Positions 21,209 through 64,000 of a stretch of 64,000 nt of DNA are shown one piece after another (the stretch's first letter is position 1; every line of letters starts with the position of its first letter). Source of the stretch: an uncultured archaeon (GTDB lineage Archaea; Aenigmatarchaeota; Aenigmatarchaeia; QMZP01); contig CAZCGK010000006.1 in NCBI GenBank assembly GCA_964498245.1, positions 944 through 64,943 of the forward strand, in the 5' to 3' direction. Both the position numbers and the translations under genes were made by a program. A model generated the notes under the pieces. The model was not told the DNA's origin. It was given only the letters and a program-made list of their open reading frames with translations, and ran no database searches.

Positions 21209-24200
21209 TTACTGTATTGCTCTAATTTTAAACATATATATTGCTGCTGCACCTGCAACAAGTATTGCAATTATGAGATACCATATCCATGTATAATCTG
21301 GGGATTTACATTTTTCCTCTGAACAGCCATATTGGCATATTTCCAAAGTCTCCCAGGATGTTCCTTCTTGATTACATTGCTGGAGTTCCTGACCCAGGCA
21401 TCGCTTTTCTCCAGGTGTACAAACTTGCTTGAGTGGTTGTTCTTCAGGTTGTTTACAGTCTTCAGGGCAGTTTTCAGGAGTTTCTCCCTCCTCGCAAACA
21501 CCATTTATATTGCAAACTTCCTCCGAAACTTGAACTTCTTCTCCTGCTATTGCGAAGTAGGAAAAGCCTGTGCTTTCTGCCTCATAGTAAACTGTTTTTG
21601 AATCTTCAGATATCAGGGTTGTTGGAAGTTTTTGCCAGGAGGTTGTATAGCGGTATAAAGAGATTGTGGATTTGTTTATGTTATTCTCTTCTATCCAAGA
21701 TTTGTTCACATGGAACTTTATAGTTGCTTTTTCAAGATTGTTTCGCAGGTTTCTGTGGGTTATTTCTATGTATTGGTATACTTTACCGGAAACTTCATGA
21801 GTTACATCTGCTGGTTTCCCTTTAAGCTTGGTCACCTTTATGTAAACAGAGGTAGCAGGATTTATGACCATTATACCTATCTCATGGATTCCAATTTCTT
21901 TCTTATTGAGTTTGAAGATTGAAACATTTCCGGGGTTTACCCTGCTCCAGGAGTAGGCCACGTAAGGAAGAATTTCTTGTGGTGTGTAGCCTGCACCTCC
22001 ACCCGTATCATAGGTGATGGAAGATTCGGGTGGTGTGTAGCTGACCGTTAGGTAATAAACAGAGGAGATTCCTGTGTTACCTCCTGCATCTCTACATCTT
22101 ACACTCCAGTTATAGTTTCCGTTAGAGAGGGATTTTGTAAAGGTTTGGGATGTGTCTTTTGTTATTGAAGTATCGGTCTGATCTGTGATGCCATTTATTA
22201 GAAGTGTGCATGAAGTTATACTGCTTGCATCTGTTACATTGTAAGTGAATGTTACCGTACTTGAGGAGGTCCAAGTGGATGCATTTGAAGGAGAGATAAG
22301 GGTAACGCTTGGCTGAATGGTATCCACTGTGAATGTGATACTTGCATGGTTAATATTTCCGGCGGTATCATTCATCCAGAGGATAAGGGTTGATTGCTGA
22401 TTGTTAAGAGCGGTAAATGTTTGGTTTGAGCATGAAGGTAGGCTTGTGTTCGTTCCATTATATTGATACCAGCATGTATCAAGATTGGCTTCGGTGTAGG
22501 TGAAGTTTAGCCAGAGAGTTGTGGTATTGTATGTGGTGTTTTGTGGCGAGAGTATTGTTATTGTTGGTGGGGTGGTATCAACTGTGAAGTATTCCTGTGC
22601 AGAGCCTGTATTTCCTGCGGAATCGTTGGCATAGACTATAACATTGTTCAATCCTTCTGATGCTGTTATGGTTATGTTTGAACATGATGCTAATATTATG
22701 TTACTTCCTCCGTTTAATGAATACCAGCATGAATCAAGGTTTGCGTCCTGAACTGTATAGTTCAGATCTATAGATGTTGTTGCATATGTGGTGTTTTGTG
22801 GTGAATAAATTGTTACAGTTGGTTGTGTTGTATCTACGGTTACATACCAAGTTCCGTTCCAACCCCAGTTTCCAACGCTGTCGTTTATATAGACCGAGTA
22901 GGAGATTATTCCATCTCCTTGGTTTGTAGCATTGAAGTAGCAGGCATAATTTCCGAGCATGGTCATGGTGTAGTTTGCCTGAGTTCCGTTGTTGAGCTCA
23001 AGTATGCAAGCTTGCGGCGTATCATCTGTGAATGTTATGTTTATTTCGAAATAATTTGTATTGATATGAGAATTGTTTGAAGGTGTGGGTGAGACAATGA
23101 TTATGTTCGAAGGCGGACCTGTGCTTACGTAGGTTGTAAATATTACCCCATCATCTGCAGAGGAAAGGTTCCAGTCTGTTTCGGTATCCGTTCCGTTCCA
23201 GTGGTTTGCAATGATATAGGAAGTATATACACCCTCGGTGGAATTTGACACATTAAGTTCAACCACTTCCCATTCTCCTATGGAGAGGTTAAGGAAAGTA
23301 TCATTCAATATTCCTGTTCCTACCACACTGAGATTATATTCCTCTCCAAGGCTGTTGTTTCCGAAATTAGTTATGTTTATGAGATATGTTGCATTTTGTC
23401 CTGCCTGAACAAATCTTTCCATAACGGTGAGGTTTTCGAATGTGAGGTTATGAAGTGTGCTTCCAACCACGTAGGTGGAGAATGTGCTTACGGTAAAGCT
23501 AAGATTCTCTCCATCAAATACTACATCCATACATCTGGTCGGTGGACATGGTTGAAGGTCTGATGGCAGGAAGCTTCCGTTAAAGCTTCCGTAACCTATT
23601 GACGGATCTTTTATACCAAGCAGTCCTGTGATATTATATATTGTTATTCTTGCAGATGTTGTGAGATTTGGTTTATCTCCCTGTCCATTCCATTCAGAAT
23701 CATTTATACCTATCCTTCCTGCTTTCATGAGGTTTTTCATTGCGAATTGCATTATAGCGGACGCTTTTTCTTTCGTGCTCATATCTACAGGCTGCGTGAA
23801 GTTAATCTTCACAACACCGGGAATCTCTATCACCAGAGGTACAGCAGAGAAATCACCTGTAGCTGCAATCTGATTGAAGTTTGTGGTGCTTCCACCGAAT
23901 TTAGGAGTACACACAACATAATCGGTTCCGTTATCCCATGCAAATCCTATGTTTTCAACAGGACATTCATTTGTGCAACCTGTTATATTCACGAGAGTTC
24001 CATTCGGTAAGGGCATCTGCGGAGGAAGTTCAAGTACATTTGGAGGGCAACTTGGAACAACACTCATGTTGAAAAGCAAGACTGGAACAAGAAATTCATA
24101 ATAGAAAACTGAATCATTTGTTGCTTTTACCGTGATGTTTACATCGCTGATATACTTTATGTTTACATTGAGATTGGAGTAATCTATAAATGCTCCAGCC

Positions 24201-24916
24201 CTGTACCAACCATTTCCTAAATCCTCTGCCTGAATGAATTCCGGTCCTCCTATTTGGGAGAAATTCATCGTAACATTCAATCCAGGAACACCTACACTCT
24301 CACCATTAGTAAAGTTTGCAACGATCTCTACCCAGTTTCCATCATAGAAAAACATGTCTGTTGTATTGGACAAATTCAGTGCTGGTCCAGGGCCAAATTG
24401 GCTCCAAGGTGTGAATCCAGGACCGAAGGGTTGAAGAACCTCAAAATTCAGTATTGTTGTATTTGTTGAATCATCGGTGAATGTTGTTGTCACATTTATT
24501 TGATAAAGTTTTCCTTTATTCGGTATGCTTATGTTAAAGAAGAAATATTGTGTTGTTCCGTTCTCTATGAAGCCTGAGGAAGTTGTGTTGGACCATACAA
24601 GATGCATAACAGATCCTGCACTTGTGTTGGAGAAAGTTGTGGATTGAGCTGTAGTCTGAGCAGATCCTTCAATGAATACAAGCTCTGCAGGGAGGGTTAT
24701 GTTGACTTTAGTTATGTTCAGAGCAGAGTCTGTATTTGTGATGCTGATATTGAGTATCTGGTTGGACTGATCCGGATATGGAATAGCAACCTGAGATGGT
24801 TGAATGCTGGATTGAAATGTTGCACCATGAACTGAAAAAGAATAAAATGATATACATAATAACAATACAGCTATAAAACAAAATACTGCTCCTATCTTTA
24901 AATTAACTTTTTTCAT
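21209..24916 (-). CDS. Cell-surface glycoprotein with Ig-like repeats, PGF-pre-PGF-type domain, Cys-rich modules and C-terminal TM
   Basis: Signal peptide from MKKVNLK (24916). Repeats TVDTTxPTxTIxSPQNTTY...NDxAGN. ESTGFSYFAIAG (PGF-pre-PGF-like); CNINGVCEEGETPENCPEDC; 6-Cys module at 21308-21421; TM plus basic tail. Confidence 0.85.
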   Translation of the reverse strand: MKKVNLKIGAVFCFIAVLLLCISFYSFSVHGATFQSSIQPSQVAIPYPDQSNQILNISITNTDSALNITKVNITLPAELVFIEGSAQTTAQSTTFSNTSAGSVMHLVWSNTTSSGFIENGTTQYFFFNISIPNKGKLYQINVTTTFTDDSTNTTILNFEVLQPFGPGFTPWSQFGPGPALNLSNTTDMFFYDGNWVEIVANFTNGESVGVPGLNVTMNFSQIGGPEFIQAEDLGNGWYRAGAFIDYSNLNVNIKYISDVNITVKATNDSVFYYEFLVPVLLFNMSVVPSCPPNVLELPPQMPLPNGTLVNITGCTNECPVENIGFAWDNGTDYVVCTPKFGGSTTNFNQIAATGDFSAVPLVIEIPGVVKINFTQPVDMSTKEKASAIMQFAMKNLMKAGRIGINDSEWNGQGDKPNLTTSARITIYNITGLLGIKDPSIGYGSFNGSFLPSDLQPCPPTRCMDVVFDGENLSFTVSTFSTYVVGSTLHNLTFENLTVMERFVQAGQNATYLINITNFGNNSLGEEYNLSVVGTGILNDTFLNLSIGEWEVVELNVSNSTEGVYTSYIIANHWNGTDTETDWNLSSADDGVIFTTYVSTGPPSNIIIVSPTPSNNSHINTNYFEINITFTDDTPQACILELNNGTQANYTMTMLGNYACYFNATNQGDGIISYSVYINDSVGNWGWNGTWYVTVDTTQPTVTIYSPQNTTYATTSIDLNYTVQDANLDSCWYSLNGGSNIILASCSNITITASEGLNNVIVYANDSAGNTGSAQEYFTVDTTPPTITILSPQNTTYNTTTLWLNFTYTEANLDTCWYQYNGTNTSLPSCSNQTFTALNNQQSTLILWMNDTAGNINHASITFTVDTIQPSVTLISPSNASTWTSSSTVTFTYNVTDASSITSCTLLINGITDQTDTSITKDTSQTFTKSLSNGNYNWSVRCRDAGGNTGISSVYYLTVSYTPPESSITYDTGGGAGYTPQEILPYVAYSWSRVNPGNVSIFKLNKKEIGIHEIGIMVINPATSVYIKVTKLKGKPADVTHEVSGKVYQYIEITHRNLRNNLEKATIKFHVNKSWIEENNINKSTISLYRYTTSWQKLPTTLISEDSKTVYYEAESTGFSYFAIAGEEVQVSEEVCNINGVCEEGETPENCPEDCKQPEEQPLKQVCTPGEKRCLGQELQQCNQEGTSWETLEICQYGCSEEKCKSPDYTWIWYLIIAILVAGAAAIYMFKIRAIQ

Positions 24917-25108
24917 ATACAAATAAATAATTAGCTTGAGACCTATATAAAATTTTAAATCGTATCCGCAAAATAAAGCAGCTTGCAAAAATAAACCTTT
25001 ATAAACCTCTGCAGTATTCTAAATATATAATCTATAATATATTATTCTCTCCTGTTCCAAATCTCGGAATCGATTAAAGCCTTCAGTTTTTGCGGAGGTG
25101 ATAACCCC

Positions 25109-46794: not shown

Positions 46795-47427
46795 ATGAAT
46801 AAAAATTTGGCGTTTTTTATGTTTTTGTTTCTAATAGTTTTCTCTGCAGGTTTTCTTACCGGTTATTTTCTGGAAAGAACGGGAATTATATACACCAAAA
46901 ACGAGCTTGAAAATCTTAGGAACGAAATAGAAAACATGCAGATTCAGGAGATGTTTATTGCTGGTGAAAATGTTGATTGCAGACTTTTGTTCTCAACCAT
47001 GGGAAAGGTTTCCTATGATCTTTACGATCTTGTTAAGAGGCTGAAAGACATAAATCCGGAATCTCCACAGTTCTATAGTGTAAAAAAACAGGCAGATTTC
47101 CTTTCTCTAAAAGCTTGGATAATAGCAAGGAGTATACAGGAAAAATGTACAAAGGATATTGTGCCTGTCCTGTATTTCTACTCACCTTCAGATTGTAAAG
47201 AATGCGCGAAACAAGATGAGATACTTCAGAGAATAAAACAAAAATACAATCAGACTCTGGTTTATGCAGTAGATTACACCCTGAATGAGCCGGCGATAAA
47301 TCTTGTAAAGGCAGCGTATGAGATAAAATCCGTTCCGTCCATGATAATAAACCATCGGCTTTACGGAAAGCTGAATGAAAGTGAAATAGAAAATATAATA
47401 TGCCAGCAGATAGAATGCGAAAATTAA
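46795..47427 (+). CDS. Membrane-anchored thioredoxin-like protein
   Basis: N-terminal TM; LYFYSPSDCKECA (CxxC); SVPSMIIN (cis-Pro loop); extra Cys residues. Confidence 0.7.
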   Translation: MNKNLAFFMFLFLIVFSAGFLTGYFLERTGIIYTKNELENLRNEIENMQIQEMFIAGENVDCRLLFSTMGKVSYDLYDLVKRLKDINPESPQFYSVKKQADFLSLKAWIIARSIQEKCTKDIVPVLYFYSPSDCKECAKQDEILQRIKQKYNQTLVYAVDYTLNEPAINLVKAAYEIKSVPSMIINHRLYGKLNESEIENIICQQIECEN

Positions 47428-47888
47428 AAAAGAGTGAAATTGAATCTGAATTTTTTCCCGATGATATTCTCCACATCCATTCCAAAATATTTTTCCTTTT
47501 CCCAAGAGTTTATTCCCAGTAATTCAAGAGTTTTCTTTTCTAAGTTATAACCGCTTTCATTTCCAAAAAGTTCTATAATTTTATCTACCTTGTTCTTAAG
47601 CCTTTCATTCAGGTTTACTTTGATGTCGTGCTTCAGTTTTATGGGAAAACCATCAATAATTTTACCCTCTTTCACAAGTTCATTATAACATTGAAAAACT
47701 TCAAAGCTGAATACACCATGATGGTAAATTAGAAATCTGTTTCCTAAGGTCTTTTCTTTAGAAAGAGCTTTACTTACAGGATCGAAATGCTCTATGAGAA
47801 ACATAAGTTTGACTAATTTTTTTCTACCTTCTATCTTATCCTTCAAGGTCTTAATCAGATACAGTATAACTTTTTTAGTTGTTTTCAT
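47424..47888 (-). CDS. Winged-helix protein, Panacea/DUF4065 (SocA)-like
   Basis: KKLVKLMFL ... F.IYHHGVFSFEV....ELV..G resembles the KLQKLLY...YGP pattern of this family. Confidence 0.5.
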   Translation of the reverse strand: MKTTKKVILYLIKTLKDKIEGRKKLVKLMFLIEHFDPVSKALSKEKTLGNRFLIYHHGVFSFEVFQCYNELVKEGKIIDGFPIKLKHDIKVNLNERLKNKVDKIIELFGNESGYNLEKKTLELLGINSWEKEKYFGMDVENIIGKKFRFNFTLF

Positions 47889-52841: not shown

Positions 52842-53360
52842 ATGTCCAAAACCCAGTTTGAAGAGGATTTTGGAATTGATCTTTCTTCACCGAATCTTGA
52901 TATAGTTAAAGCTGTAGAAGTTGCGATAGAGATAGAAAAGATGGGAAAGCAATTCTATGAATATTATGCTGAAAAGGCAGACCCGGAAGCGAGGATGTTT
53001 CTGGAGTTTCTTGCAAAAGAGAAAGAAAAACATATTGAAATTCTTAAAGAACTCAGAGCTTCCCTCAAACTTAGAAATGCATGGATAGAGCTTAAGCAGG
53101 ATAGAGAAATAGAGGGTATGCTTGAGAACCTTCAGGTGTTTAAGGAAAAACTGGAAATAAAGGTGGAAAGCGTGGATATGATAATGAAATGCATAGAGAA
53201 TGAAAAGAAAACCAGGGAGTTTTATGAAAGGCTTGCGGAAAATGTGAAGAGTGAAGAGGGAAGAAAATTCTTTCAAGCCCTTGCAAAATGGGAAGATTCA
53301 CACTACAAACTCCTCGGCAGGATTTTGAAAGCTTCCACGAGTTTCAGTATGGAGATGTGA
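52842..53360 (+). CDS. Ferritin-like/rubrerythrin-family protein
   Basis: AIEIE..G..FY ... LA..E..H repeated twice (four-helix bundle pattern). Confidence 0.88.
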   Translation: MSKTQFEEDFGIDLSSPNLDIVKAVEVAIEIEKMGKQFYEYYAEKADPEARMFLEFLAKEKEKHIEILKELRASLKLRNAWIELKQDREIEGMLENLQVFKEKLEIKVESVDMIMKCIENEKKTREFYERLAENVKSEEGRKFFQALAKWEDSHYKLLGRILKASTSFSMEM

Positions 53361-53642
53361 TTATACAAATACAGTGGTGTTGTCAAATTCTATCAATGGT
53401 TTATTCTTAATCCTTTTGAATCTTCTTTCACACTTCTTACATAACGTTGCTATCTCTATTTCAACATCCGTTTCAGAAGAAAGTTTTTTGAAATATTTTT
53501 TGAGAAATATAAAATTCTGGAAATCTATATCACCGATATATACACTTTTATGCAACCTTACAAAACCGTTATTTCTTAAAAAATTTCTTATTTTTTCCCT
53601 TTTTCTATCATCACTTATATCATAGCTTGTTATTGCAAGCAT
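53361..53642 (-). CDS. cas2: CRISPR-associated endonuclease Cas2
   Basis: SYDISDDRKR...GFVRLHKSVYIG; GGTGA SD before ATG at 53642. Confidence 0.93.
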   Translation of the reverse strand: MLAITSYDISDDRKREKIRNFLRNNGFVRLHKSVYIGDIDFQNFIFLKKYFKKLSSETDVEIEIATLCKKCERRFKRIKNKPLIEFDNTTVFV

Positions 53643-54591
53643 TGCTTTCACCAAACGGTACAAATTCGCTTCTATCGAGAATGTAATCAACCCAGTGATT
53701 AATTCTTTTCTTTATTAATGATTTTGTTTTATCCAGCTTGTTAAGAACATTTTCTATAACAATTTTTCTACCCTTTTCGTTAAGATACATACCTCCGTGT
53801 TTTTTCGGATTCAATATTTTTTTAAACACAAGCCTTAGGATAGTCGAATCTACAATTGGTTGCCTGAATTCTTCCATAAAATCCAACACAAGACACGGTT
53901 TCCTGCCTTTTTCTTCATGGTAAAAACCTATGTAAGGATCAAACCCTTTCATTACAAGATATTTCCATAGTTCAGAAAAAAGAATACCATATCCATAACT
54001 CAGAGAAGCATTAACTATATCTTGAGGTGGACGTGTTCTCCCATTAAAACGAAAGAATTTTGGAATTATTTTTCTGAGAGACTCAAAATATAATTTTGCA
54101 GAAATGCCTTCTATGCCTCTTAATTCTTCTATAGATTGTTTTTGATAAATTTTTGACAACCAAGTTTCAAGCTGTCCAGCATATTTCATTAAAAGATTAC
54201 ATTTTTCTTTACTCGTTCTTTTTCTTGAGTATGCAAGTGATTTTATAATACCGATTTTATTTTTTATGCATGCATGAACAATACCTTGAATTATGTCAAT
54301 GTTTTTTTCTATAGACTTTTTATATTGCATTTTTCTTAATATGGGAAAATTTTCATTTGTTATGTAATATAATTTTGCAACAGGCATACCGAATCTGTCC
54401 ATGAATGTAAGATCTTTTTTAGAATTGACTATAAGAGCTATTGCAGAAGAACTTATGCCGCAGCTTTTATATAATATTATTCTTTCAATGTTGGTTATAG
54501 AATATTCTTCACTTTTTTCATCCGTATATAGAACCAACCTGCCCTGTTTTTTACCGATAAATGTGCCGTGTTTATCTATTATTATATTCAT
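53620..54591 (-). CDS. cas1: CRISPR-associated endonuclease Cas1
   Basis: LRGIEG..AKLYF, R.RPPQD.VNA.LSYGY, DPYIGFYH, LVLDFMEEFRQPIVD. Confidence 0.96.
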   Translation of the reverse strand: MNIIIDKHGTFIGKKQGRLVLYTDEKSEEYSITNIERIILYKSCGISSSAIALIVNSKKDLTFMDRFGMPVAKLYYITNENFPILRKMQYKKSIEKNIDIIQGIVHACIKNKIGIIKSLAYSRKRTSKEKCNLLMKYAGQLETWLSKIYQKQSIEELRGIEGISAKLYFESLRKIIPKFFRFNGRTRPPQDIVNASLSYGYGILFSELWKYLVMKGFDPYIGFYHEEKGRKPCLVLDFMEEFRQPIVDSTILRLVFKKILNPKKHGGMYLNEKGRKIVIENVLNKLDKTKSLIKKRINHWVDYILDRSEFVPFGESNACNNKL

Positions 54592-55483
54592 TGTGTTCAC
54601 CTTTGCAGAATGAATTGAAACAACATGAATTGCATAATAACGTTTTCTTTCCCTGAGGGAAAACGCGCCTTAGATAGTATGAAATACATTTATCTCTCAG
54701 GTCTTTTGCATATTTTCTTAATTCATCGTCTATTTTGAAGGAATATGCTTTATTAGCATCTAAATAATATATTGTACCCTTGTTACAATTTTTATGAAAA
54801 ATTCTTTCAAGAGCAATAGAATAGAATACCACCTGTAATTTATCCGTGAACCATGGTTCATTTTTTGGAGAATTGCCTGTTTTTATTTCTTCTACTGTAA
54901 AGGTGTTATTTTTCTGAAAAATTATATCTATTCTGCCAGACACGGCTATATCTTTACTCGAAAAATAATATTCTTTCGCAAACGGGAGTATGATTTTCTT
55001 TATTTCATTTATTGTGGTCTTGTTAAAGAGCATAAATTCTATTCTTTCTCTATCTCTGACCCACCTTTTCAAAACAGAATTATTAATTTTTTCAACAATA
55101 TCCTTTGGAATATTTTGCTCTGTACATATTTCTGATATTTTATTTTGCCATAGAAACATGAAATTGTTTAAAGATCTAGTATAATTAAGCGATTCTATCA
55201 AATCCTCAAGAAGTTCATAATAATCTTTGATTAGAATCCTATGTTTTATCAAGCCAATCGACATGTTGAATGATTTTTCCGATTTACCTTCGATAGCAGA
55301 ATAATAAAATTTTCGTGGACAAATGTAAAAAGATATGTACGACCTTACGGGTAAAATTATATTTTTGTCTGTATTCCAATACTCAGAATATCCTCTGAAT
55401 TTATCAGAAATAGAGGAGGCGCCTCCTGAGTTTATCTGCTTCATCTTGCGCATCAGCCAACTATCCTTACTAGAACAAGTCAA
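54572..55483 (-). CDS. cas4: Cas4 family exonuclease (long, Csa1/Cas4a-like)
   Basis: CPRKFY, SGRIDII, VEEIKTG, QVVFY, C-terminal CNSCCFNSFC Fe-S ligands; strong SD AAGGAGGTGA before TTG at 55483. Confidence 0.9.
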   Translation of the reverse strand: MTCSSKDSWLMRKMKQINSGGASSISDKFRGYSEYWNTDKNIILPVRSYISFYICPRKFYYSAIEGKSEKSFNMSIGLIKHRILIKDYYELLEDLIESLNYTRSLNNFMFLWQNKISEICTEQNIPKDIVEKINNSVLKRWVRDRERIEFMLFNKTTINEIKKIILPFAKEYYFSSKDIAVSGRIDIIFQKNNTFTVEEIKTGNSPKNEPWFTDKLQVVFYSIALERIFHKNCNKGTIYYLDANKAYSFKIDDELRKYAKDLRDKCISYYLRRVFPQGKKTLLCNSCCFNSFCKGEHNEYNNR

Positions 55484-55648
55484 ATTATCACCTCCTTATT
55501 CTTAATGAGAAATAGTTTGAATCAAATAGCAAATACTTTACATGAACGGTTCAAATTTTATTGAACACATAGAAAATTTTTATATTGTTCAATTATTTGT
55601 TTAACCATAAGCCAAATATTTATAAGTTTTAATTTGTTTTTCATTCTT
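55484..55648. promoter_or_regulatory. Divergent cas promoter region with repeated TGAAC/GTTCA palindromic half-sites
   Basis: TGAAC-G-GTTCA at 55543-55553; ATTGAACA (55560-55567) / TGTTCAAT (55586-55593) flank a TTTTTATA box; TTTGA-A-TCAAA at 55516-55526. Confidence 0.55.
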
Positions 55649-56875
55649 ATGGGAAAAGTTCTGGTAATGAGTGTCGGTGTTGGTGGAAACAACAAAGAAA
55701 GCCTTGCAAACGCTTTGAAATATTCCATCCAACACCACAATCCGGAAAAAGTAATATTTCTTGTTTCTGAGCAGAGTAAGAATGAAGTATTACCGCTTAT
55801 AGTTGAGGATATGGATTCTGAGTATGAAACTATAGATGTGTCCGATATAAACGACATAGATAAATTATATGAAAAATTTGTAACTATATTTTCTCTGTTG
55901 TTGAAAAGAGGATATAAACATAAAGATATAGTTGTAGATTTCACAAGTGGCACAAAAGCCATGAGTGCTGCCCTTGCAATTGCAAGTATATCTATGGAAA
56001 TAGAAAATCTTAGTTATATAATGGGCGATAGAAAGGATGGTACTGTTATATCTGGTAGGGAGAGAATTCTGCCATTAAGACCTTATAGTATATTAATTGA
56101 TAACCAGCTAAAGATAATCGATACTTTGTTTTCATTCTACAGGTTTGATGCATGTATAGATATAATCAATACATTAAAACGGAAAACCAATGCTGATGAT
56201 ATACAAAGCATTCTTAATAAATATGAAAACATTTGTTTGGCCTATTCTTTGTGGGATAAGTTCGACCACAGTTCTGCACAAGAGAAATTAAAAGATGTAA
56301 AGAATATTTTGCGCAAAAATTATGGATTTTTAGGCAGACTTAATGCTTTAAAGAAAAATGAGGAAAATGATGTTTTCGAATATCTGATAGCAGATCTGAT
56401 AAACAATGCTAAGAGAAGAGGAAAGGAAGGAAGATATGATGATGCTGTTGCCAGATTGTATAGAGCAGTTGAGATGGTTGCTCAGTACAGACTTAAATCT
56501 CTGGGATTTGATACCTCTGATATAGATATGAGAAAAATACCAGAAAAACATAAAGAGAAATACAATCAACTCAAAGATAAAAAAACGGGTAAGATAAAGC
56601 TACCTCTTTATAAAAGCTATGAATTGTTATCCGATATTGACGATGAAATTGGTAAAAAGTTTTATGAAAACGAAGAGCTCCAGAAATATTTAAGAGTCAG
56701 AAACGACTCGGTTTTAGCTCATGGAATAACACCTATTACGCAAGAATTATACGAAAAGTTATTGAAAGCCACTATAGATTTTATAAAAGATGTTTTCCCA
56801 GATATTGAAAATCTCATGAGAATCTCTGAATTTCCCAGTTCAATACCCATTGAACGGTACAAAAAAGAGATTTAG
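55649..56875 (+). CDS. csm6: CARF-HEPN ribonuclease (Csm6 / TIGR02710-like)
   Basis: SVGVG strand; VDFTSGTKAMSAAL CARF motif; GRYDDAVARLYRAVEM; HEPN RNDSVLAH. Confidence 0.88.
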   Translation: MGKVLVMSVGVGGNNKESLANALKYSIQHHNPEKVIFLVSEQSKNEVLPLIVEDMDSEYETIDVSDINDIDKLYEKFVTIFSLLLKRGYKHKDIVVDFTSGTKAMSAALAIASISMEIENLSYIMGDRKDGTVISGRERILPLRPYSILIDNQLKIIDTLFSFYRFDACIDIINTLKRKTNADDIQSILNKYENICLAYSLWDKFDHSSAQEKLKDVKNILRKNYGFLGRLNALKKNEENDVFEYLIADLINNAKRRGKEGRYDDAVARLYRAVEMVAQYRLKSLGFDTSDIDMRKIPEKHKEKYNQLKDKKTGKIKLPLYKSYELLSDIDDEIGKKFYENEELQKYLRVRNDSVLAHGITPITQELYEKLLKATIDFIKDVFPDIENLMRISEFPSSIPIERYKKEI

Positions 56876-56898: not shown

Positions 56899-57633
56899 AT
56901 GATGAACACCCAACAAATCTTCCAGATAGCAACTCTGGGTGAACAACCAGAACCAATAATATATTTGTTGAAGGCATATCCAAATACAAAAAAGATTTTT
57001 CTTATTTGTAGTGATAAGTCTGTGGATTATTCCGAACCGATAGAAAAAACATGCGATATTCTCGATATTGATGTGGATAAAAGAATAATTCAACCGCAAA
57101 AAATTTCCAACATCATAAAGGAAATTATAATTATCGCAAAGGAATGCGGTTATTCTCCACCGGTTTTCTATGGCATTAGAAGCAAAAAACCTCATAAAAT
57201 AATAAAAGAAGCCAAAGCAAAGAAAAGAGAAAATGCTAACATCTTCATCAATATAACTGGTGGAACAAAGGTTATGAGTTCTGCCGCTTTATATTCTGCG
57301 TATCTTATAGGCGCGAAAGCGTTTTATGTATGGAAAAATGATGATAATGGTGATATGGAAATAATAAATCTACCTACATTGAATTTATCGATAGAAAATT
57401 TTCTTTCACCAGTGCGTCTTAAGATACTTGGTGTTCTTTATGAAAAACAAAAGGTAAAGTCTTCCGAGGAGATAAGAAAGGACACGGAAATCCAAAAATC
57501 TACCATCAGCCATATTATAAGAGAACTGGAAAAAATAAACCTTGTAAAAACAACAGGAGGACGAAGTAAATATCTTCAGACAGAAATAACAGAAGAGGGT
57601 AGATTGATATATGAAATTTACGGAAAGAGGTGA
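56899..57633 (+). CDS. CARF + winged HTH protein (Csa3-like regulator)
   Basis: INITGGTKVMSS CARF motif; C-terminal LKIL...STISHIIRELEKINLV...ITEEG wHTH. Confidence 0.82.
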   Translation: MMNTQQIFQIATLGEQPEPIIYLLKAYPNTKKIFLICSDKSVDYSEPIEKTCDILDIDVDKRIIQPQKISNIIKEIIIIAKECGYSPPVFYGIRSKKPHKIIKEAKAKKRENANIFINITGGTKVMSSAALYSAYLIGAKAFYVWKNDDNGDMEIINLPTLNLSIENFLSPVRLKILGVLYEKQKVKSSEEIRKDTEIQKSTISHIIRELEKINLVKTTGGRSKYLQTEITEEGRLIYEIYGKR

Positions 57634-59906
57634 GAGAAATGATAGATATAGAATCTGTAAAAATTGGTGCATTGCTACATGATATAGGAAAACCTTTAGT
57701 TGGTAGGAAAGAATTTATTGGTAAAACACATTCAAGAATAGGATATGAATTATTACAACCTTTAAAATCTTTGCTTGGTGAGAAATCACTCAAGGCTGTT
57801 TTATATCATATGTACGAAGAAAGAAAACGTGAATGTATAGATTATAATAAGCTAGATGATGAATGTATTATCGTTGATATAGCCGACAATCTTGCTTCTG
57901 CATCTGATAGAGAAGAAAAGGAAAGCGATGAAAAAAGTTCTTATATTATCGATCCTATAACAAAGAAAACAGTCGAACCTTATCTACATGGCATAAAACA
58001 CTTGAAAAACTTACCACTTTATCTTTCAAAAATACCAAATTTCAACAAAAGTATAATACTTTCAAAGATTTTGCTTGAACCAAAACCATCAAATGGAAAC
58101 AATTCAGAAGTTAAAAGTGGTCTTAGTGAAATAACTAAACTGCTAAAAAAATGGAGAGCATCTTATTATTCTCCCAACCATTCTTTATACCATCATATAA
58201 AACTTACAGCAGCAATAGCAACATGTATCGCATATGACATGAAAAACGGCATTATTAATATAGAGAATGTCAAAAATTATGACGTTAAATTTGCTCTCGT
58301 CTCAGGAGATATAAGAGGTATACAAAACTTTATTTCGCAATCAAGAAAATTCAGAGATTTGCATAATTCCAGCCAGATAATAATGGATGTAATAAATAAT
58401 TTAGCTGAATGTATAGAATCAAAATATGGAATTCAGAATGTTCTGTATAAAGGTGGTGGAAATTTTTTGGTATTACTTCCTTACTCTGAATATGAAAAGG
58501 ATATAGAAAAACTTGAAAACAGATTTCAGCAGTATTTATCCGGTATGGGATGGAAAAAGGGTATTAAAAAACCATTTTCTGTTTTGTTTTCTGTGAGCAT
58601 TTTGAGAAAAACAGGTAGTGAGAATAAAACAAACTCACACGAAATAAGTAATTTCGGTAAATGCTGGGAGCGATTGCAGAAAATATCATTTTATGGAAAG
58701 TCAAGAGGTTTCAAAAAGATTATTGAAAAAAATTATCATGAAATTGATGATTATTTTCCTGATATTGTTCATGCAAGACAATATGAAGAATTTATATGTT
58801 CCCTTTGCGGTGAAAGAGAAGGCATGTATAAAACGGATAAAGAAAAACGAGAGATTCTTTGCGAGATATGCTACAGAAAAAGAAACAGAAAAACCAGAAC
58901 GTATGTTGACCTTGGAGAAATTGCAATAGCTTCTATCAAAGACAAGGTAATTAATTTTATGGGTGTCAAAGAATTTGAAAAGATTGTAGGAAAATCAATA
59001 AATGATATCTCGTATGATGATTTGATCAAAATAAAAGAGAATATCACAAAAAAGAATGTGAAAAAGGAGGTTAAGGAATTTTTTGCAAAGCTCAAGATAC
59101 CAAAAGAAATAGCGGTATTAAAAATCGATGGAGATAACCTTGGTAGATGGTTTTCTGGAAAGGGGATAAAAGAAGAGTGTGAAAAGGAAAAGCGAAGAGT
59201 TAGGAAAACTACAGAAAAAGGGAAAGAGGAAGAATGTAAAGTTACAATAGCAACAATTTCTTATCTAAGCGAACAGATAAAGAGTTTGGAAAGAGATATA
59301 ATAAAAACCATCAAAAAATGTAAAGGAGAATGCGTATACACAGGTGGTGATGATACTCTTGCCGTGTTACCTTTATCCCAAGCTGTTCGGTGTGCAATGG
59401 AGGTCAATGAACTTTTCAGAAAAAGGTTTACAGGAACCGATAATGAGCAAAAAATAACAATTTCTGCAGGCATATTTGTATGCGATCATCACTTCCATTT
59501 AAGATTTGCACTTGAAGAGGCAGAAAAAATGCTTTCTACATCGAAAGGTGAAGGTAAAAATAAATGTACAATTGGAGTTATGGGCAAGGTTGGAAATTAT
59601 ATAACATATGAATGGAAAGAGCTTGAAAGATTATGGAATGGTATAAACCTGATAAAAATTCCGAGGAATGAACTATACAAATTAAGAACAATTCTTCACA
59701 GCAAATCTGATGAAACGGAAAAACTGAACGAAATTAGAGCGTTCTTGATATATCAGCTTTCGAGAAAGAAAGAAGATGAGATAGAGGAATTCAGGAATTT
59801 TGTTGAGTTTATTCTTCGGGAAATAAAGAATGATGGTATCAGATTTTTGAACAAGTTTTTCCAGCTTGTGGAAATAAAAACTGAGGAGGTGGATAATGAA
59901 AAGTGA
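57630..59906 (+). CDS. cas10: Type III CRISPR large subunit Cas10 with HD nuclease and intact cyclase palm
   Basis: LLHDIGK...HSRIG...ADNLAS (HD); SGDIRGIQNFI; YKGGGNF; Zn ribbon CSLC...CEIC; KIDGDNLG; YTGGDD. Confidence 0.96.
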   Translation: MREMIDIESVKIGALLHDIGKPLVGRKEFIGKTHSRIGYELLQPLKSLLGEKSLKAVLYHMYEERKRECIDYNKLDDECIIVDIADNLASASDREEKESDEKSSYIIDPITKKTVEPYLHGIKHLKNLPLYLSKIPNFNKSIILSKILLEPKPSNGNNSEVKSGLSEITKLLKKWRASYYSPNHSLYHHIKLTAAIATCIAYDMKNGIINIENVKNYDVKFALVSGDIRGIQNFISQSRKFRDLHNSSQIIMDVINNLAECIESKYGIQNVLYKGGGNFLVLLPYSEYEKDIEKLENRFQQYLSGMGWKKGIKKPFSVLFSVSILRKTGSENKTNSHEISNFGKCWERLQKISFYGKSRGFKKIIEKNYHEIDDYFPDIVHARQYEEFICSLCGEREGMYKTDKEKREILCEICYRKRNRKTRTYVDLGEIAIASIKDKVINFMGVKEFEKIVGKSINDISYDDLIKIKENITKKNVKKEVKEFFAKLKIPKEIAVLKIDGDNLGRWFSGKGIKEECEKEKRRVRKTTEKGKEEECKVTIATISYLSEQIKSLERDIIKTIKKCKGECVYTGGDDTLAVLPLSQAVRCAMEVNELFRKRFTGTDNEQKITISAGIFVCDHHFHLRFALEEAEKMLSTSKGEGKNKCTIGVMGKVGNYITYEWKELERLWNGINLIKIPRNELYKLRTILHSKSDETEKLNEIRAFLIYQLSRKKEDEIEEFRNFVEFILREIKNDGIRFLNKFFQLVEIKTEEVDNEK

Positions 59907-60354
59907 ATATGAACTGGGGAAGCAAATTGCAAAAGAACTAGCAAATGCAGGTGTTTCAGAGACCAAATACAGACAACTGTATAACATAATCATCAACAGT
60001 TCAGCATATCAAGATGTTGAAAGAAGGCTTAAGAAAAAAGAAGGCTCGGATACAGAAAGAGACAAACAAATAGAAAATGAAATACTTGAAGTGTTCAACA
60101 GACTGAAGGGTGTATTAATTTACAGTGCAACCCGAGGAGAATTGGCTAGTGGTGATAATAAACGAGAAAGATTTGAGAAATCACAGAAAGTTACAGAATT
60201 CTTTTTGCAAAAGCTATCCCAATACAAACCAGAGATTGAGGATTTCAGAAGGTTCAAAAAAGTAATGGAGTATGCAACCATGTTCTTTAAATTTTACAGT
60301 GATCCCAAACTGAAAAATTTCCGAGAGAGTCTTGAAAATAAAAACCTGATATAG
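59896..60354 (+). CDS. csm2: Type III small subunit (Csm2/Cas11)
   Basis: Alpha-helical 152 aa directly after cas10; TKYRQLY...L..L.Y...R...F....EY...F.K. Confidence 0.7.
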   Translation: MKSEYELGKQIAKELANAGVSETKYRQLYNIIINSSAYQDVERRLKKKEGSDTERDKQIENEILEVFNRLKGVLIYSATRGELASGDNKRERFEKSQKVTEFFLQKLSQYKPEIEDFRRFKKVMEYATMFFKFYSDPKLKNFRESLENKNLI

Positions 60355-60365
60355 GAGGTGAAATT

Positions 60366-61022
60366 ATGGAAAGTAGAGCAAAATTGAAAGAAAGGGTTGT
60401 TTTAAACTGCGTGTTAACCGTGAAAAGTCAGCTGCATATAGGTGCGGGAAAGGAAGCCATAACTCCAGGAACGACAGACCTGGTTGTGATAAGGGATTCC
60501 AACGACATGGTATACATTCCCGGATCTTCGATAAGGGGCTGTCTGAGAATGGAAGCAGAAAAGCTTTCAGATGAGGAAACCATAGAAAAAATTTTTGGTA
60601 GAGCTGATAAAGAGAGTTTGGCATCAAAAATTATTGTAAGAAACGGTTATTTGAAAGAAGAGGAAGTGATAGGACTGGACACACGACCCGGTATTCAAAT
60701 AGACAGGGAAACAGGTAGTGTAAAAAAAGGTGCCCTGTTTTTCACAGAAGCAATACCAAGGGGTACAAAGTTTTACTTTCAGATAATTGTAGACAATCCT
60801 ACAGATGAAGAGCTCCAGCTTATACTTGCAGCAATCAGAGCAGTTAATGACAGAGGACTAGGTCACGGTGTTTCAAGAGGATTCGGACATGTTGTGATCA
60901 AAATAAAAGACGATTCTGTAATCAAAACGCCAACATCCTACATCACAGGGGAAACAGAAAGTTTCATTGAGAAATACAAAAAACTGAATCTCGATGACCT
61001 TATTATAAAAGCGAGTGATTGA
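60366..61022 (+). CDS. csm3: Cas7-group RAMP (Csm3)
   Basis: LHIGAG, TTDLVVIRD (candidate catalytic Asp), YIPGSSIRG, R.GI.IDR.TG, G-rich loop GLGHGVSRGFG. Confidence 0.92.
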   Translation: MESRAKLKERVVLNCVLTVKSQLHIGAGKEAITPGTTDLVVIRDSNDMVYIPGSSIRGCLRMEAEKLSDEETIEKIFGRADKESLASKIIVRNGYLKEEEVIGLDTRPGIQIDRETGSVKKGALFFTEAIPRGTKFYFQIIVDNPTDEELQLILAAIRAVNDRGLGHGVSRGFGHVVIKIKDDSVIKTPTSYITGETESFIEKYKKLNLDDLIIKASD

Positions 61023-61023
61023 A

Positions 61024-61764
61024 ATGCAAATCGCACCTGAATTAAAGGAGAGAAGAATCGTTAAATGTGAAATGAAATTGTTAGAGACAGGTAGGAAGTG
61101 GCTGATACTTGATTCTTCCATGAATCTGCAGATACCTGGTTCATGGATAAAGGGTATAATAAGAAGAGAAGCCGAAGAAAGACAGTACTTAATTATAGAT
61201 AATCAGAAGTTTGTAAAATGTGCTGTAGGGCAGAAATTCGATTTCAGAGCATTAAAACACGGAAACAGTTATAAAGAATTCTGGGACGAAAGAGAGAAAA
61301 AATGGAAGGAACCAGCAAAATATATACCGCCTTTTGCTAATATAAAAAGGACATACACTTACAGCAGAAAATATAAGAGACACTACGGTACATTTTGCGG
61401 AAACTTGAGACAGGAACGACAAATTAATAATGAAAAACAAAAACTTGAAATAATATGCGATGTCTGCAAAATATTCGGTTGCGCAGGGGGATTTTACAGT
61501 TATGCAAGTAAAGCAAAATTCAGCAATGGATTTATGAACAATGTAAACTTTACTTTCTCTATAGTATTTGATATCAGTAACGAAGAAGATACACGTCTTT
61601 ATAACAGGCTTATTGAAGTTTTAAAAGCATTCGAAAACGGAAACACAATTCTTGAGAAGGAGATTCTACCAAGACATAGATTAAATAGAACACTGGGTTT
61701 TTCCTTGAAAGTGGTTGAAGAAAAAACTATAAAACCTGAGGATTATCTGGGAGGTGAAATATGA
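61024..61764 (+). CDS. Atypical/degenerate Cas7-like RAMP with basic-aromatic insertion
   Basis: LQIPGSWIKGIIRREAE and CDVCKIFG...SKAKFS are RAMP-core motifs; lacks the N-terminal xHIG motif and the C-terminal G-rich loop. Confidence 0.6.
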   Translation: MQIAPELKERRIVKCEMKLLETGRKWLILDSSMNLQIPGSWIKGIIRREAEERQYLIIDNQKFVKCAVGQKFDFRALKHGNSYKEFWDEREKKWKEPAKYIPPFANIKRTYTYSRKYKRHYGTFCGNLRQERQINNEKQKLEIICDVCKIFGCAGGFYSYASKAKFSNGFMNNVNFTFSIVFDISNEEDTRLYNRLIEVLKAFENGNTILEKEILPRHRLNRTLGFSLKVVEEKTIKPEDYLGGEI

Positions 61765-62834
61765 GTCCTGTAATTCTGGATGTAACAATCAAACTCCTCT
61801 CACCTATGTACATAGGTGTCGGGTATGAGTTTACTCACTTAAAGCGTTGCAAGGATTATATTCCGGGAATAGTTCTGAGAGGCGCGTTTGAAACAGCTAT
61901 CACGGAAATTTATGGAGATAAAGATATTGTGGAAAGTGTTCATAACAAAATATTTCAGAAATACGAAATGAAAAATGGTAAAATCATAAATAGCAATAAA
62001 AAGGGAAATGCCTATTTTCGTCCAGCATATCCAATGATTGAAGAAACGAAACTGTTACCCTGTCCACAAAATGTCTCATATTGTCCTAAATGTGGAAAAT
62101 TGCTTCGCGATAAACCTATTTGTCCAGAACATAACGAAAAATGTAAAAGAATAAAATGGATTTCTGAAGAAGGATTGGAAATGGTTATGAATAATGGAGA
62201 AGTGAATGAGAAACTGAATGGTGAAATTCCGAAAAAAAGAAAAATATGGAGAATATCTCTTGAAACCAGTAAGGGCACGGTGAAGGAAGGACCCTTTGTA
62301 TATGAAGCAATTGAAAAAGATGAATGTTTTCATACCCGGATAATTTTGTTGAAGGACTTTGTAAAGGAGTTCATAAACGCTGCTAAATACTTAGAAGACA
62401 GTGGTATCGGTGCACTTACAAAAATGGGATTTGGTGAAGTTGAGATAAAAATCAAACAATCTCAACACGAACCAAACACTATTAAATCATTGGATAAGGA
62501 TGAAATTTCTATAACAGCTCTATCTCCAATAATTACTTCTTCACCTGATGTTTTAAAGGAAGTTTCTAAATCGGATTTGCGAATAAATTATGAACCTGAG
62601 TTGAGAAGACTTGAACTATCTGGATACAACGGCTCTGTTGTGCCTGTTCGAGGATGGTCTTTAGAATATAAAAGGAGAAATCTTCAGTTTGCACTGGATA
62701 AAGGTTCTGTTATATTTTATAAAATTGGAAAAAACATTGATAAGGAAAAACTCATCGACGAGATTAAAAGAGCTCAAATATTCGGTATAGGTAAAAATTC
62801 GATGTTTGGCTTTGGTTGGATCATGTTCCATTAA
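61761..62834 (+). CDS. Cas5-group RAMP with two G-rich loops (Csx10/Csm4-like)
   Basis: LLSPMYIG, DYIPGIVLRGA, CPKC...CPEH, GIGALTKMGFG and GIGKNSMFGFG. Confidence 0.75.
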   Translation: MSPVILDVTIKLLSPMYIGVGYEFTHLKRCKDYIPGIVLRGAFETAITEIYGDKDIVESVHNKIFQKYEMKNGKIINSNKKGNAYFRPAYPMIEETKLLPCPQNVSYCPKCGKLLRDKPICPEHNEKCKRIKWISEEGLEMVMNNGEVNEKLNGEIPKKRKIWRISLETSKGTVKEGPFVYEAIEKDECFHTRIILLKDFVKEFINAAKYLEDSGIGALTKMGFGEVEIKIKQSQHEPNTIKSLDKDEISITALSPIITSSPDVLKEVSKSDLRINYEPELRRLELSGYNGSVVPVRGWSLEYKRRNLQFALDKGSVIFYKIGKNIDKEKLIDEIKRAQIFGIGKNSMFGFGWIMFH

Positions 62835-63025
62835 ATGTTATCAATATGAAACTCATATTGATAGAAGAAGGCTTGCTACGATGACCTTTCCTTATTGAGG
62901 GCGGGCTATTGCCCGCCCGTTTGCATATTTATAAATACCCATTCCATATTCTGATGTAAATTTTCTCATTCAATAAAAACCGATTTTAGATAATTTTTGA
63001 GCTTAAAATTCAATTTTAAGGTGCT
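62835..63025 (+). promoter_or_regulatory. CRISPR leader, preceded by two hairpins
   Basis: AT-rich non-coding stretch before repeat 1; TTTATAAA at about 62928; hairpins TATCAATATG/CATATTGATA (62839-62863) and GGGCGGGC/GCCCGCCC (62899-62918). Confidence 0.7.
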
Positions 63026-64000
63026 GAAGAAATCGGAAATAGGAAAGGAGTACATGGCAACTTTCTCCTAGATATGCATTAGGATAACCTTTGTTTCTAC
63101 ATGAAGAAATCGGAAATAGGAAAGGAGTACATGGCAACGTAGCTGTTGTATGCTCTTGCTATTATTTTGCTATTTTCTTGAAGAAATCGGAAATAGGAAA
63201 GGAGTACATGGCAACCTCCTTATAATTCTTTTCGCAATTTCTGGAGTTACCAATTGAAGAAATCGGAAATAGGAAAGGAGTACATGGCAACAATTATTCC
63301 TCCGAGCACTCCAAGATAAGGCGCTTTTGAAGAAATCGGAAATAGGAAAGGAGTACATGGCAACTGAGTTTCTCTTTGCAGATATTCCTTAGTTTTTTGA
63401 GTAGAAGAAATCGGAAATAGGAAAGGAGTACATGGCAACTCCACACTCCAAAACCCAAGGGTCATTTTTGAAATCACTGGAAGAAATCGGAAATAGGAAA
63501 GGAGTACATGGCAACGAATGTCTCTGAGTGCGATCAGTTCATCATAATCTTTATAGAAGAAATCGGAAATAGGAAAGGAGTACATGGCAACGTGTGGAGT
63601 GAAATTTAAAATTTTTACATTTTTCATTTTTTGAAGAAATCGGAAATAGGAAAGGAGTACATGGCAACTTATGAAACATTTGTCTGTCAGAATGTCTACA
63701 TACATGCTCGAAGAAATCGGAAATAGGAAAGGAGTACATGGCAACAGTTAAATATTTGCTTTTCTTCCCCAGCATTGAGAGTATAAGGAAGAAATCGGAA
63801 ATAGGAAAGGAGTACATGGCAACTTATTCACCTCCCGATTCATTCTATCTTACCTTTTCCCAGAAGAAATCGGAAATAGGAAAGGAGTACATGGCAACTT
63901 GTTTTCAGATTTCATGGTTTTAGCCATGAAATCACCTCGAAGAAATCGGAAATAGGAAAGGAGTACATGGCAACTGTAAATTACTGTTTTCGTATCGTCG
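63026..64000 (+). CRISPR. CRISPR array: 13 identical 36-bp repeats GAAGAAATCGGAAATAGGAAAGGAGTACATGGCAAC, 12 complete spacers (37-42 bp) plus one truncated
   Basis: Repeat starts at 63026, 63103, 63180, 63256, 63329, 63404, 63480, 63556, 63633, 63710, 63788, 63863, 63939. The 3' end ATGGCAAC resembles the 8-nt ATTGAAAC-type handle, which with the leader position supports + orientation. Confidence 0.99.

Follow-up and report, generated by a model that had tools for sequence, protein, structure and literature searches.

The locus analyzed here is a very divergent offshoot of a compact archaeal lineage of type III CRISPR systems; it is a new variant, not a new kind of machine. Judged from its sequence, it likely encodes a complete, probably active type III system with a Csm-like effector, branching deeply from that lineage and carrying a second Cas7. 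An earlier note on this DNA had proposed an undescribed type III variant. Its status as a new and divergent variant stands, but it is built on the plan of the compact clade plus one Cas7 paralog.

Organization and Authenticity of the Locus

The window, by which we mean the whole 64,000-nt stretch of DNA that was analyzed, comes from a rare uncultured archaeon. ORF calling identified five co-directional ORFs at 57630–62834 that form a tight operon (Table 1), exactly where five effector genes had been reported in the earlier note. Successive junctions measure −11, +11, +1, and −4 nt, the ribosome-binding site GGAGGTG lies upstream of three of the effector genes, and the coding strand shows no further ORF of at least 50 aa, whether between these genes or ahead of the array. 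The operon stands behind cas2-cas1-cas4 adaptation genes, and the order in the window is CARF-HEPN csx1/csm6, CARF-wHTH, effector operon, and then the CRISPR array. The general hallmarks of type III are present: a Cas10 with Palm/cyclase domains, a Cas7 backbone, a Cas5, and an adjoining array.

Table 1. Features of the CRISPR-Cas locus, in window coordinates
Feature	Position	Strand	Remarks
cas2	53361..53690	−	Pfam CRISPR_Cas2 on identical Logan contig
cas1	53620..54600	−	Pfam Cas_Cas1; homologous Cas1 in relatives' loci
cas4, PD-(D/E)xK	54572..55483	−	Pfam Cas_Cas4 / PDDEXK_1
csx1/csm6-type CARF-HEPN effector	55634..56875	+	Likely start ATG 55649, 408 aa
Csa3-like CARF + winged-HTH regulator	56899..57633	+	Overlaps cas10 start by 4 nt
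cas10, Csm1-like	57630..59906	+	HD, Palm1, Zn finger, Palm2 GGDD, C-terminal Cas11-like domain
cas11/csm2-like small subunit	59896..60354	+	152 aa; profile matches
cas7, Csm3/Csx7-like backbone RNase (predicted)	60366..61022	+	218 aa; Pfam RAMPs
Inactivated Cas7 paralog	61015/61024..61764	+	249/246 aa; Cas7 profile
cas5, Csx10-type	61761..62834	+	357 aa; two RRMs, two G-rich loops, Cys-rich insert
Terminator-like GC-rich hairpin, then T's	62899..62922	+	Closes cas operon; read from sequence
Putative CRISPR leader	62923..63025	+	TATA-like tttataaata ~62927–62940; function inferred from sequence
CRISPR array	63026..64000	+	13 identical 36-nt repeats (GAAGAAATCGGAAATAGGAAAGGAGTACATGGCAAC), 12 complete spacers; runs past window end

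The window agrees with an independently made Logan assembly at 100% identity across 9737 nt. In a second metagenome, the fourth gene occurs at 72% identity with the same neighbors, and its dN/dS of 0.12 indicates purifying selection. Thus, the locus is neither a chance arrangement nor an assembly artifact. The earlier note suggested a search for loci with the same five-gene order; the order Cas7/Cas7-like/Cas5 is conserved in the second metagenome. The compact relatives carry four genes.

Two signaling genes lie upstream of cas10. The CARF-HEPN protein scores 225 bits against TIGR02710 (cut-off 84), with matches to the Pfam Csm6 HEPN domain (1.4e-40) and PADLOC CARF_HEPN (8e-106), and its HEPN motif, RNDSVLAH, lies at residue 351; its homologs in relatives (E ~1e-77) come after the array. 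The CARF-wHTH regulator matches PADLOC CARF3 (4.9e-32), NCBIfam Csa3 (8e-13), and several wHTH Pfam families. With an intact GGDD motif in Cas10 and these two genes adjacent, the system looks competent for signaling, as had been proposed.

The array has an unstructured repeat and spacers of 37–42 nt. All 12 complete spacers are pyrimidine-rich on the + strand and, read from that strand, are antisense-like to purine-rich coding strands (purine fraction 0.38 vs. 0.585). A protospacer search with these spacers found none, and the orientation assigned to the array therefore relies on spacer composition together with the leader/TATA reading. Since its 13 repeats are identical and every one of the 12 spacers is antisense-like, the array looks live.

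A Csm1-Type Cas10 with a Csm2-Like Small Subunit and One Probably Active Cas7

Cas10 is 758 aa long from GTG 57630, although ATG 57639 is the likelier start and gives 755 aa. It matches the PADLOC Cas10 profile (E 1.9e-70) and the Pfam HD (3.8e-12) and Cas10-Cmr2_palm2 (1.1e-33) domains. The HD and GGDD motifs, previously described as intact, are both present: the protein contains H17-D18, GDIRGIQ at 226, CSLC/CEIC at 390/411, DGD at 500–502, and GGDD at 572–575, and all of these are invariant among the relatives, HD and GGDD being so throughout the compact clade. The only cut-off passed by Cas10 is that of III-A Csm1 (TIGR02578, 193.3 bits vs. 170, aligned over residues 10–747). Among PADLOC subtype profiles it scores 4.3e-39 to Cas10a, 5.2e-36 to Cas10b, and 7.8e-18 to Cas10d. 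Its sequence matches in the PDB are Csm1 and Cmr2 only, and this search returned no match to III-D Cas10 structures.

A Cas10 phylogeny had been called for in the earlier note. In a rough neighbor-joining tree built without a curated reference set, the window Cas10 falls inside a group of III-A and compact-clade proteins in 100 of 100 bootstraps and is sister to the two together in 88; its branch appears to lie outside the sampled III-A clade. In 6 of 100 bootstraps its sister is III-A alone, and in only 6 of 100 does it fall within the compact clade. This basal placement may reflect long-branch attraction.

Support for the reported Csm2-like gene is weak yet consistent: its product matches PADLOC Csm2 (1.6e-6) and, under the gathering score, Pfam Csm2 (2.5e-4), and the hhalign probability is 82% against the small subunit of the compact clade but 37% against Csm2. 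The single canonical Cas7 of the earlier description is confirmed by its profile matches (Pfam RAMPs 4.4e-30, Csx7 6.5e-24, Csm3 2.3e-20). Its D38, aligned with the catalytic D33 of Streptococcus thermophilus Csm3 (StCsm3), is retained; the CxxC Zn knuckle is missing from this protein and kept in its paralog.

An Inactivated Cas7 Paralog

The fourth gene, earlier called a degenerate RAMP, is indeed derived from Cas7: it matches a Cas7 profile (E 2e-8) and, by BLASTP, the Cas7 of the relative locus L004 (1e-8), and hhalign assigns 94% to Cas7 and 3% to a Csm5 alignment. It retains the IPGSWIKG and CDVCKIFG motifs and has acquired neither a catalytic Asp nor a G-rich loop from its Cas7 ancestry; a basic/aromatic stretch of ~80 aa is inserted in it. 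Its AF2 model is poor (pLDDT 45), and no relatives were found in the PDB. The paralog most likely sits at one fixed position in the complex. By analogy, we think that this position would be the 3′ cap, like that of Csm5, Cmr1/6, or the III-Dv Cas7-insertion subunit.

The loss of the catalytic Asp and G-rich loop would also fit a decaying remnant, in which this gene is pseudogene-like and the complex defunct, as would the scores of most subunits, which lie under the curated family cut-offs. Such decay is very improbable, however. No reading frame is broken, the junctions overlap, and the ribosome-binding sites are strong; the fourth gene is under purifying selection; Cas10, Cas7, and the HEPN protein each preserve all of their catalytic motifs; and identical repeats are accompanied by an adaptation module.

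A Csx10-Type Cas5

The last gene of the operon encodes a Cas5-group protein described earlier as having a double G-loop and a Zn-binding insert. Both G-rich loops (GIGALTKMGFG and GIGKNSMFGFG) and a Cys-rich insert at residues 101–128 (C101, C108, C111, C121, and C128) are seen; that this Zn-ribbon-like insert binds zinc is what we infer from the Cys pattern. The AF2 model has a pLDDT of 83 and a pTM of 0.85, and its best Foldseek match is the Cas5 domain of the III-Dv fusion protein (8s9v_A, 6e-21), followed by Cmr3 and then Csm4. A family profile matches residues 247–590 of 8s9t_A (3.7e-33). All 28 distant homologs match TIGR02674 Csx10 (best 2.3e-70); for the window protein itself the score is 38.4 bits (cut-off 177.3). 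It reaches 32.7 bits against the Csm4 model TIGR01903 (cut-off 55), and no match to the Csm4_C domain PF17953 was found in it.

It is useful to consider whether this 357-aa protein might instead be a Cas6-like pre-crRNA endonuclease, alone or in a dual role with Cas5, with the degenerate RAMP filling another slot. Searches of the 64-kb window and of the loci of ~12 relatives with 8–10 kb of flanks turned up no cas6, weak Cas6 profile matches fall on the G-loops, and in canonical III-A loci that already bear Csm4 (L007, L008, and L032) the place where cas6 usually stands is taken by Csx10-like RAMPs. Relatives of the protein also match Pfam AF_1859_N; in the Archaeoglobus fulgidus I-A system, AF1859 serves as cas6 (PMC8036902). 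However, the best structural matches all belong to the Cas5 group, no Cas6 is among the best 50, and a Cas6-only protein would leave the four-gene relatives without any Cas5. Moreover, Cas6 is supplied in trans for most type III loci (PMC12669027). We therefore regard a Cas6 role as quite unlikely and retain the assignment to Cas5.

A Compact Archaeal Clade with the Same Plan

The nearest relatives of the window Cas10, Cas11, Cas7, and Cas5 all lie in one compact archaeal clade, which has a four-gene module, cas10-cas11-cas7-csx10-like, and for which no name was found in the accessible literature. The module occurs in Nitrososphaeria, Bathyarchaeia, Methanosuratincola, Caldarchaeales, and one Halobacteria MAG. 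Our sample comprises 17 distinct Cas10s with it; roughly half of their loci have a detected ORF for the small subunit, and the remainder have an unannotated ~520-nt gap at that place. Like the window, these loci have the same families in the same order, an HD+ and GGDD+ Cas10, a Csx10-type Cas5 with a Zn-ribbon insert, a homologous Csm6-type CARF-HEPN protein, and, in the loci checked, an array directly downstream with no cas6 in the locus. An array and/or csm6 follows in many of them.

The window also differs from these loci. It has the extra inactivated Cas7 paralog between cas7 and cas5, whereas compact-clade loci have a single cas7; its Cas10 is ~100 aa longer (theirs are ~630–660 aa); its active Cas7, unlike theirs, has no CxxC knuckle; and identities are low, at ~25% for Cas10, ~25% for Cas5, and 37–42% for Cas7. 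In the compact clade, too, Cas10 resembles that of III-A and Cas5 that of III-D. Thus, the mixed signal is a trait of the whole lineage, not the mark of a recombinant locus, and the "hybrid" of the earlier note was not shown.

Comparison with Named Subtypes

The earlier claim that the effector fits neither III-A nor III-D cleanly agrees with the per-subunit profile scores, which do not all point to one established subtype. Canonical III-A systems have five effector genes, Csm1–Csm5, besides Cas6 and Csm6. The window shares with them the number of effector genes and a full-length Csm1-type Cas10 that has HD and GGDD and exceeds its family cut-off. It also has, like them, a small subunit resembling Csm2, a Cas7 resembling Csm3 in which the catalytic Asp is kept, and a Csm6-type HEPN effector. 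It differs in that its Cas5 belongs to the Csx10 family rather than being Csm4, its second RAMP is a Csm3-derived paralog rather than Csm5, and it has no adjacent cas6. None of the proteins scored reaches the Csm5 models (best 15.8–18.5 bits vs. a cut-off of 38.3). Nor can the operon be called minimal, as it had been, since it has as many effector genes as Csm1–5 and the four-gene relatives are smaller.

III-D systems typically have at least three Cas7 paralogs and a Cas10 that mostly lacks the HD domain, and csx19 is frequent, not universal. Their signature is csx10, a specific cas5 variant, often with csx19 and several Cas7 paralogs (PMC11026444). The window shares with III-D a Cas5 that appears to be of the Csx10 family and more than one Cas7 paralog, one of them with an insertion, as in III-Dv Cas7-insertion. 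By contrast, its Cas10 has a full HD domain and scores far better to III-A/III-B profiles, and its Csx10 score lies far under the curated cut-off. No Csx19 match was found among the five operon and two upstream accessory proteins, in libraries that may not hold Csx19 models, and Cas7 and Csx10-like profiles found no RAMPs in the 64-kb window beyond the two Cas7-family genes and Cas5.

An ordinary III-A or III-D system whose Csm4/Csm5, Csx19, further Cas7s, or cas6 lie just past the array is quite improbable. The window does end inside the array, up to 4.8 kb may follow (the source contig measures 68,799 nt), and arrays sometimes split type III loci. However, the operon already has every essential class (Cas10, Cas11, Cas7, and Cas5), a terminator-like hairpin ends it, the relatives with sequence past the array have only csm6 or adaptation genes there, and the independent Logan assembly likewise ends in the first CRISPR repeat.

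Few genes and a reductive appearance are also shared with III-F and III-H, which have a single Cas7. In III-F the cyclase is inactivated, and no CARF effectors are known. III-H likewise lacks CARF effectors, and its cyclase is inactivated (PMC12669027). [quoted passage not shown]

Proposed Mechanism and Implications

Judged by homology, the effector probably follows the Csm plan. The Csx10-type Cas5 and Cas10 would be placed at the crRNA 5′ tag, the single active Cas7 would build the backbone in several copies, and copies of Cas11 would form the minor filament. The array would be transcribed from the + strand, and the crRNAs would base-pair with invader transcripts, which D38 of Cas7 would cut at regular intervals. 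Target binding would switch on the HD nuclease and GGDD cyclase of Cas10; the resulting cyclic oligoadenylate would activate the CARF-HEPN RNase and be sensed by the CARF-wHTH regulator. The operon is probably a deep, fast-evolving branch from the compact lineage, its second Cas7 gained by duplication.

In type I-C systems, Cas5d matures crRNA. A broader reading assigns such a role to the Csx10-type Cas5 here, which has a Zn ribbon and, at its N terminus, a Cas6-like RRM, and unites the window and the compact clade in an unrecognized subtype-level group that would be signaling-competent, autonomous (with its own array and adaptation genes), and Cas6-less, to which the window would add a noncatalytic, insertion-bearing Cas7 cap. 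We consider this reading unlikely as a whole.

The gain from the window itself is modest: a very rare organism has yielded one further divergent variant. The lineage to which it belongs may be relevant more broadly. [quoted passage not shown] The small type III effectors of the 2025 classification are described as having lost it (PMC12669027). A lineage with an HD nuclease, a cyclase, and CARF effectors on four or five effector genes is unlike those. First, it would be a handy minimal model of the coupling between target binding and the activation of Cas10. Second, it could serve as a small scaffold for type III-based RNA detection. Finally, the stable association of a Csm1-type Cas10 with a Csx10-type Cas5 across an archaeal clade bears on how III-A and III-D are delimited.

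An operon that fits no single established subtype

An earlier note had described five genes encoding a minimal, signalling-competent type III effector that fits neither III-A nor III-D cleanly. The gene count is borne out by the ORF listing, in which five co-directional ORFs occupy precisely the interval assigned to the operon, with junctions of −11, +11, +1 and −4 nt and GGAGGTG ribosome-binding sites 5′ of cas11, cas7 and cas5. The lack of fit also holds. Subtypes are defined by core gene set and Cas10 clade in the 2025 classification (PMC12669027), and III-D is marked by csx10, often with csx19, and by a mostly absent HD domain (PMC11026444). The window fails as III-A on Csm4 and Csm5, which it lacks, and as III-D on csx19, the number of Cas7 paralogues and Cas10 type. 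Membership in III-F or III-H was rejected on the intact GGDD (cyclase) motif. The variant III-A2 is described as being without an identifiable Cas11; in the window a Cas11 is weakly identifiable.

The locus recurs in the independent Logan assembly SRR7051320, which is 100% identical across 9737 nt and ends within the first repeat. The rubrerythrin/cas2 region is directly preceded by housekeeping genes that encode MetRS, aRF1 and a B12-radical SAM protein, and with such neighbours the CRISPR locus is chromosomal. Because aRF1 is encoded, the organism is an archaeon. It is a rare one: in clustering of ~15 billion proteins at 90% identity, its aRF1 stands alone and its MetRS clusters with a single further protein. 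The window also holds two giant ORFs, of a kind common in small-genome archaea.

Features of the CRISPR locus and other genes in the window
Feature	Position	Strand	Remarks
Giant ORF	13464-21116	minus	2550 aa
Giant ORF	21209-24988	minus	1259 aa
154-aa ORF	47424-47888	minus	~5 kb upstream of cas locus; PADLOC PDC-M19A match, 6.4e-8 (candidate defence family)
Rubrerythrin/ferritin-like gene	52842-53360	plus	adjoins cas2
cas2, cas1, cas4	53361-55483	minus
CARF-HEPN gene	55634/55649-56875	plus
CARF-wHTH gene	56899-57633	plus
Effector genes (n = 5)	57630-62834	plus
GC-rich hairpin	62899-62922		3′ of effector genes
AT-rich stretch	between hairpin and CRISPR array		100 nt, with TATA-like tttataaata
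CRISPR array	63026-64000		13 identical 36-nt repeats; extends past window end
Spacers	63062-63938		12

Core proteins of the effector

The individual subunits largely answer to their first description. Cas10, said to have intact HD and GGDD motifs, matches generic Cas10 profiles at 1.9e-70 and the NCBIfam Csm1 model over its full length (193 bits; cut-off 170). Pfam detects its HD domain, and H17-D18, GDIRGIQ (Palm1), CSLC...CEIC, DGD and GGDD are all found and are invariant among its relatives. The closest Cas10s share only ~25% identity and belong to Nitrososphaeria, Bathyarchaeia, Methanosuratincola, Caldarchaeales and one Halobacteria MAG. The 152-aa protein, taken for Csm2-like, gives weak but consistent matches to Csm2/Cas11 (PADLOC 1.6e-6, Pfam 2.5e-4; by hhalign, 82% to the relatives' small subunit and 37% to Csm2), which point to that assignment. 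The 218-aa protein, called a canonical Cas7, is of the Csm3/Csx7 type (Pfam RAMPs, 4.4e-30), and its D38 lines up with the catalytic residue of S. thermophilus Csm3, D33.

The 357-aa protein had been read as a double-G-loop Cas5-group protein, and both G-rich loops and a Cys-rich insert, which probably binds zinc, are present. A word-based homologue search with it returned only itself, and exhaustive HMMER turned up just 28 relatives among 1.84 billion representatives (best 2.3e-10), every one of which matches the Csx10 model TIGR02674. Its structural model is good (pLDDT 83, pTM 0.85). The best structural match is the Cas5 domain of the Cas7-Cas5-Cas11 fusion of the III-D variant III-Dv (6e-21), followed by Cmr3 and then Csm4; Cas6 is absent from the top 50. 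The profile of its family aligns with residues 247-590 of 8s9t_A at 3.7e-33. Some family members are much longer, with 657 aa in a Halobacteria MAG (L023:11050-13023) and 524-553 aa elsewhere, which suggests fusions with an additional domain.

A compact archaeal clade

The relatives of the window operon form a strikingly uniform group of loci with cas10 (~630-660 aa), a small protein (~175 aa), a single cas7 (~230 aa) and a Csx10-like protein (~385 aa), in that order. This four-gene module occurs in TACK archaeal MAGs, in the loci L002-L005, L010-L020, L022, L023, L025 and L040. The small protein was found at roughly half of them; the rest show an unannotated gap in its place. The Cas10s carry HD and GGDD, and many loci have a downstream Csm6-type CARF-HEPN gene homologous to that of the window (E ~1e-77). 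At L004, the locus checked for repeats, a CRISPR array directly follows the module. As judged from gene content, the compact-clade effector consists of four genes. To our knowledge, this is fewer than in any signalling-competent subtype.

All four core proteins of the window are closest to this clade. Its Cas7 is 37-42% identical to compact-clade Cas7 versus 29% to a III-A Csm3, its Cas11 aligns with the compact-clade small subunit, and its top Cas5 match is a protein of the compact-clade type. The clade shows the same split signal, in that its Cas10s match Cas10a and Cas10b models far better than Cas10d and its Cas5 matches Cas5_IIId models. In a rough NJ tree of 79 Cas10s (100 bootstraps), the window Cas10 falls within a group of compact and III-A sequences in 100/100 replicates and is basal to both in 88/100. 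Given the nearest relatives and the shared split signal, the operon is therefore best read as a divergent offshoot of the compact lineage. The proposed hybrid origin is not sustained: the core proteins and the split signal trace to one clade, and we see no chimera of III-A and III-D modules. The window conforms to the clade except for an extra Cas7.

An inactivated Cas7 paralogue

This extra Cas7 is the fourth protein (246/249 aa), which the earlier note had called a degenerate RAMP. Indeed, it carries W at the catalytic Asp site, lacks the G-rich loop and bears an insertion of about 80 residues that is basic/aromatic in character. Pfam and NCBIfam barely detect it; a Cas7 profile made from relatives matches it at 2e-8, its IPGSWIKGIIRREAE and CDVCKIFGCAG motifs align with a thaumarchaeal Cas7 (BLASTP 1e-8), and hhalign gives Cas7 94% and Csm5 3%. 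The homologue search yielded one relative, a 72%-identical copy on an 884-nt metagenome contig, with a matching Cas7 C-terminus on one side and Cas5 N-terminus on the other; no further relatives turned up among the JGI metagenome contigs scanned. Against this copy dN/dS is 0.12, and the fourth gene is a real gene. Its AF2 model is unusable (pLDDT 45), Foldseek with that model gave no significant match, and a PDB sequence search gave chance matches only. Because structure prediction failed, we can only infer its fold and position. The window's operon has gained it as a second, inactivated Cas7.

CRISPR array and crRNA processing

The unstructured, purine-rich repeat has ATGGCAAC at its 3′ end, where ATTGAAAG/C is more usual in archaea. 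The putative crRNA tag is AUGGCAAC. An exact search found no match to the repeat in genome, metagenome or viral collections, and for this reason sister arrays were not recovered. Every one of the 12 spacers is rich in pyrimidines on the plus strand (purine fraction 0.21-0.45, mean 0.38). Coding strands of the organism have a mean purine fraction of 0.585, with values under 0.45 in just 7% of coding 40-mers. Selection for crRNAs that target transcripts would give rise to a strand bias of this sort. Transcribed on the plus strand from the leader with its TATA-like element, the array would yield crRNAs antisense to mRNAs, assuming that purine loading is common to invaders and that the array is oriented as read. 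Two spacer searches in viral contigs found no protospacers. A live, RNA-directed system is supported by the identity of all repeats and the pyrimidine richness of all spacers.

By homology, the effector would be a Csm-like complex, with Cas5 and Cas10 positioned at the crRNA 5′ tag, Cas7 as the backbone and Cas11 as the minor filament. The Cas7 paralogue would take up a single set position, probably as the 3′ cap. Once target RNA is bound, Cas7 D38 would cut RNA, the HD nuclease would be switched on and cOA would be made; cOA would then activate the CARF-HEPN RNase (HEPN motif RNDSVLAH) and also be sensed by the CARF-wHTH regulator.

No Cas6 was found in the 64-kb window or at the loci of the relatives. 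The 227-aa ORFs that lie 5′ of cas10 in the relatives were rejected as candidates, being HTH-CARF regulators. The Csx10-type protein might additionally process pre-crRNA. Relatives of the 357-aa protein carry a precomputed Pfam match, AF_1859_N, and AF1859 is presumably the cas6 of the A. fulgidus I-A locus. AF1859 is listed within that locus (PMC8036902). Moreover, canonical III-A loci with a complete Csm1-5 set, Csm4 included, carry an extra Csx10-like RAMP in the place normally taken by cas6 (L007:10001-11116, L008:7669-8784, L032:42-1016), and the neighbouring examples L035 and L039 give weak Cas6 model matches. Part of this RAMP family may act as Cas6. However, most type III loci depend on a Cas6 provided in trans (PMC12669027), and we therefore consider processing by the Csx10-type protein improbable.

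Implications

The novel-variant interpretation is supported in part: no established subtype fits, but the hybrid origin gives way to an offshoot of a compact archaeal lineage. Overall, this compact, signalling-competent clade is a more interesting object than the window itself.
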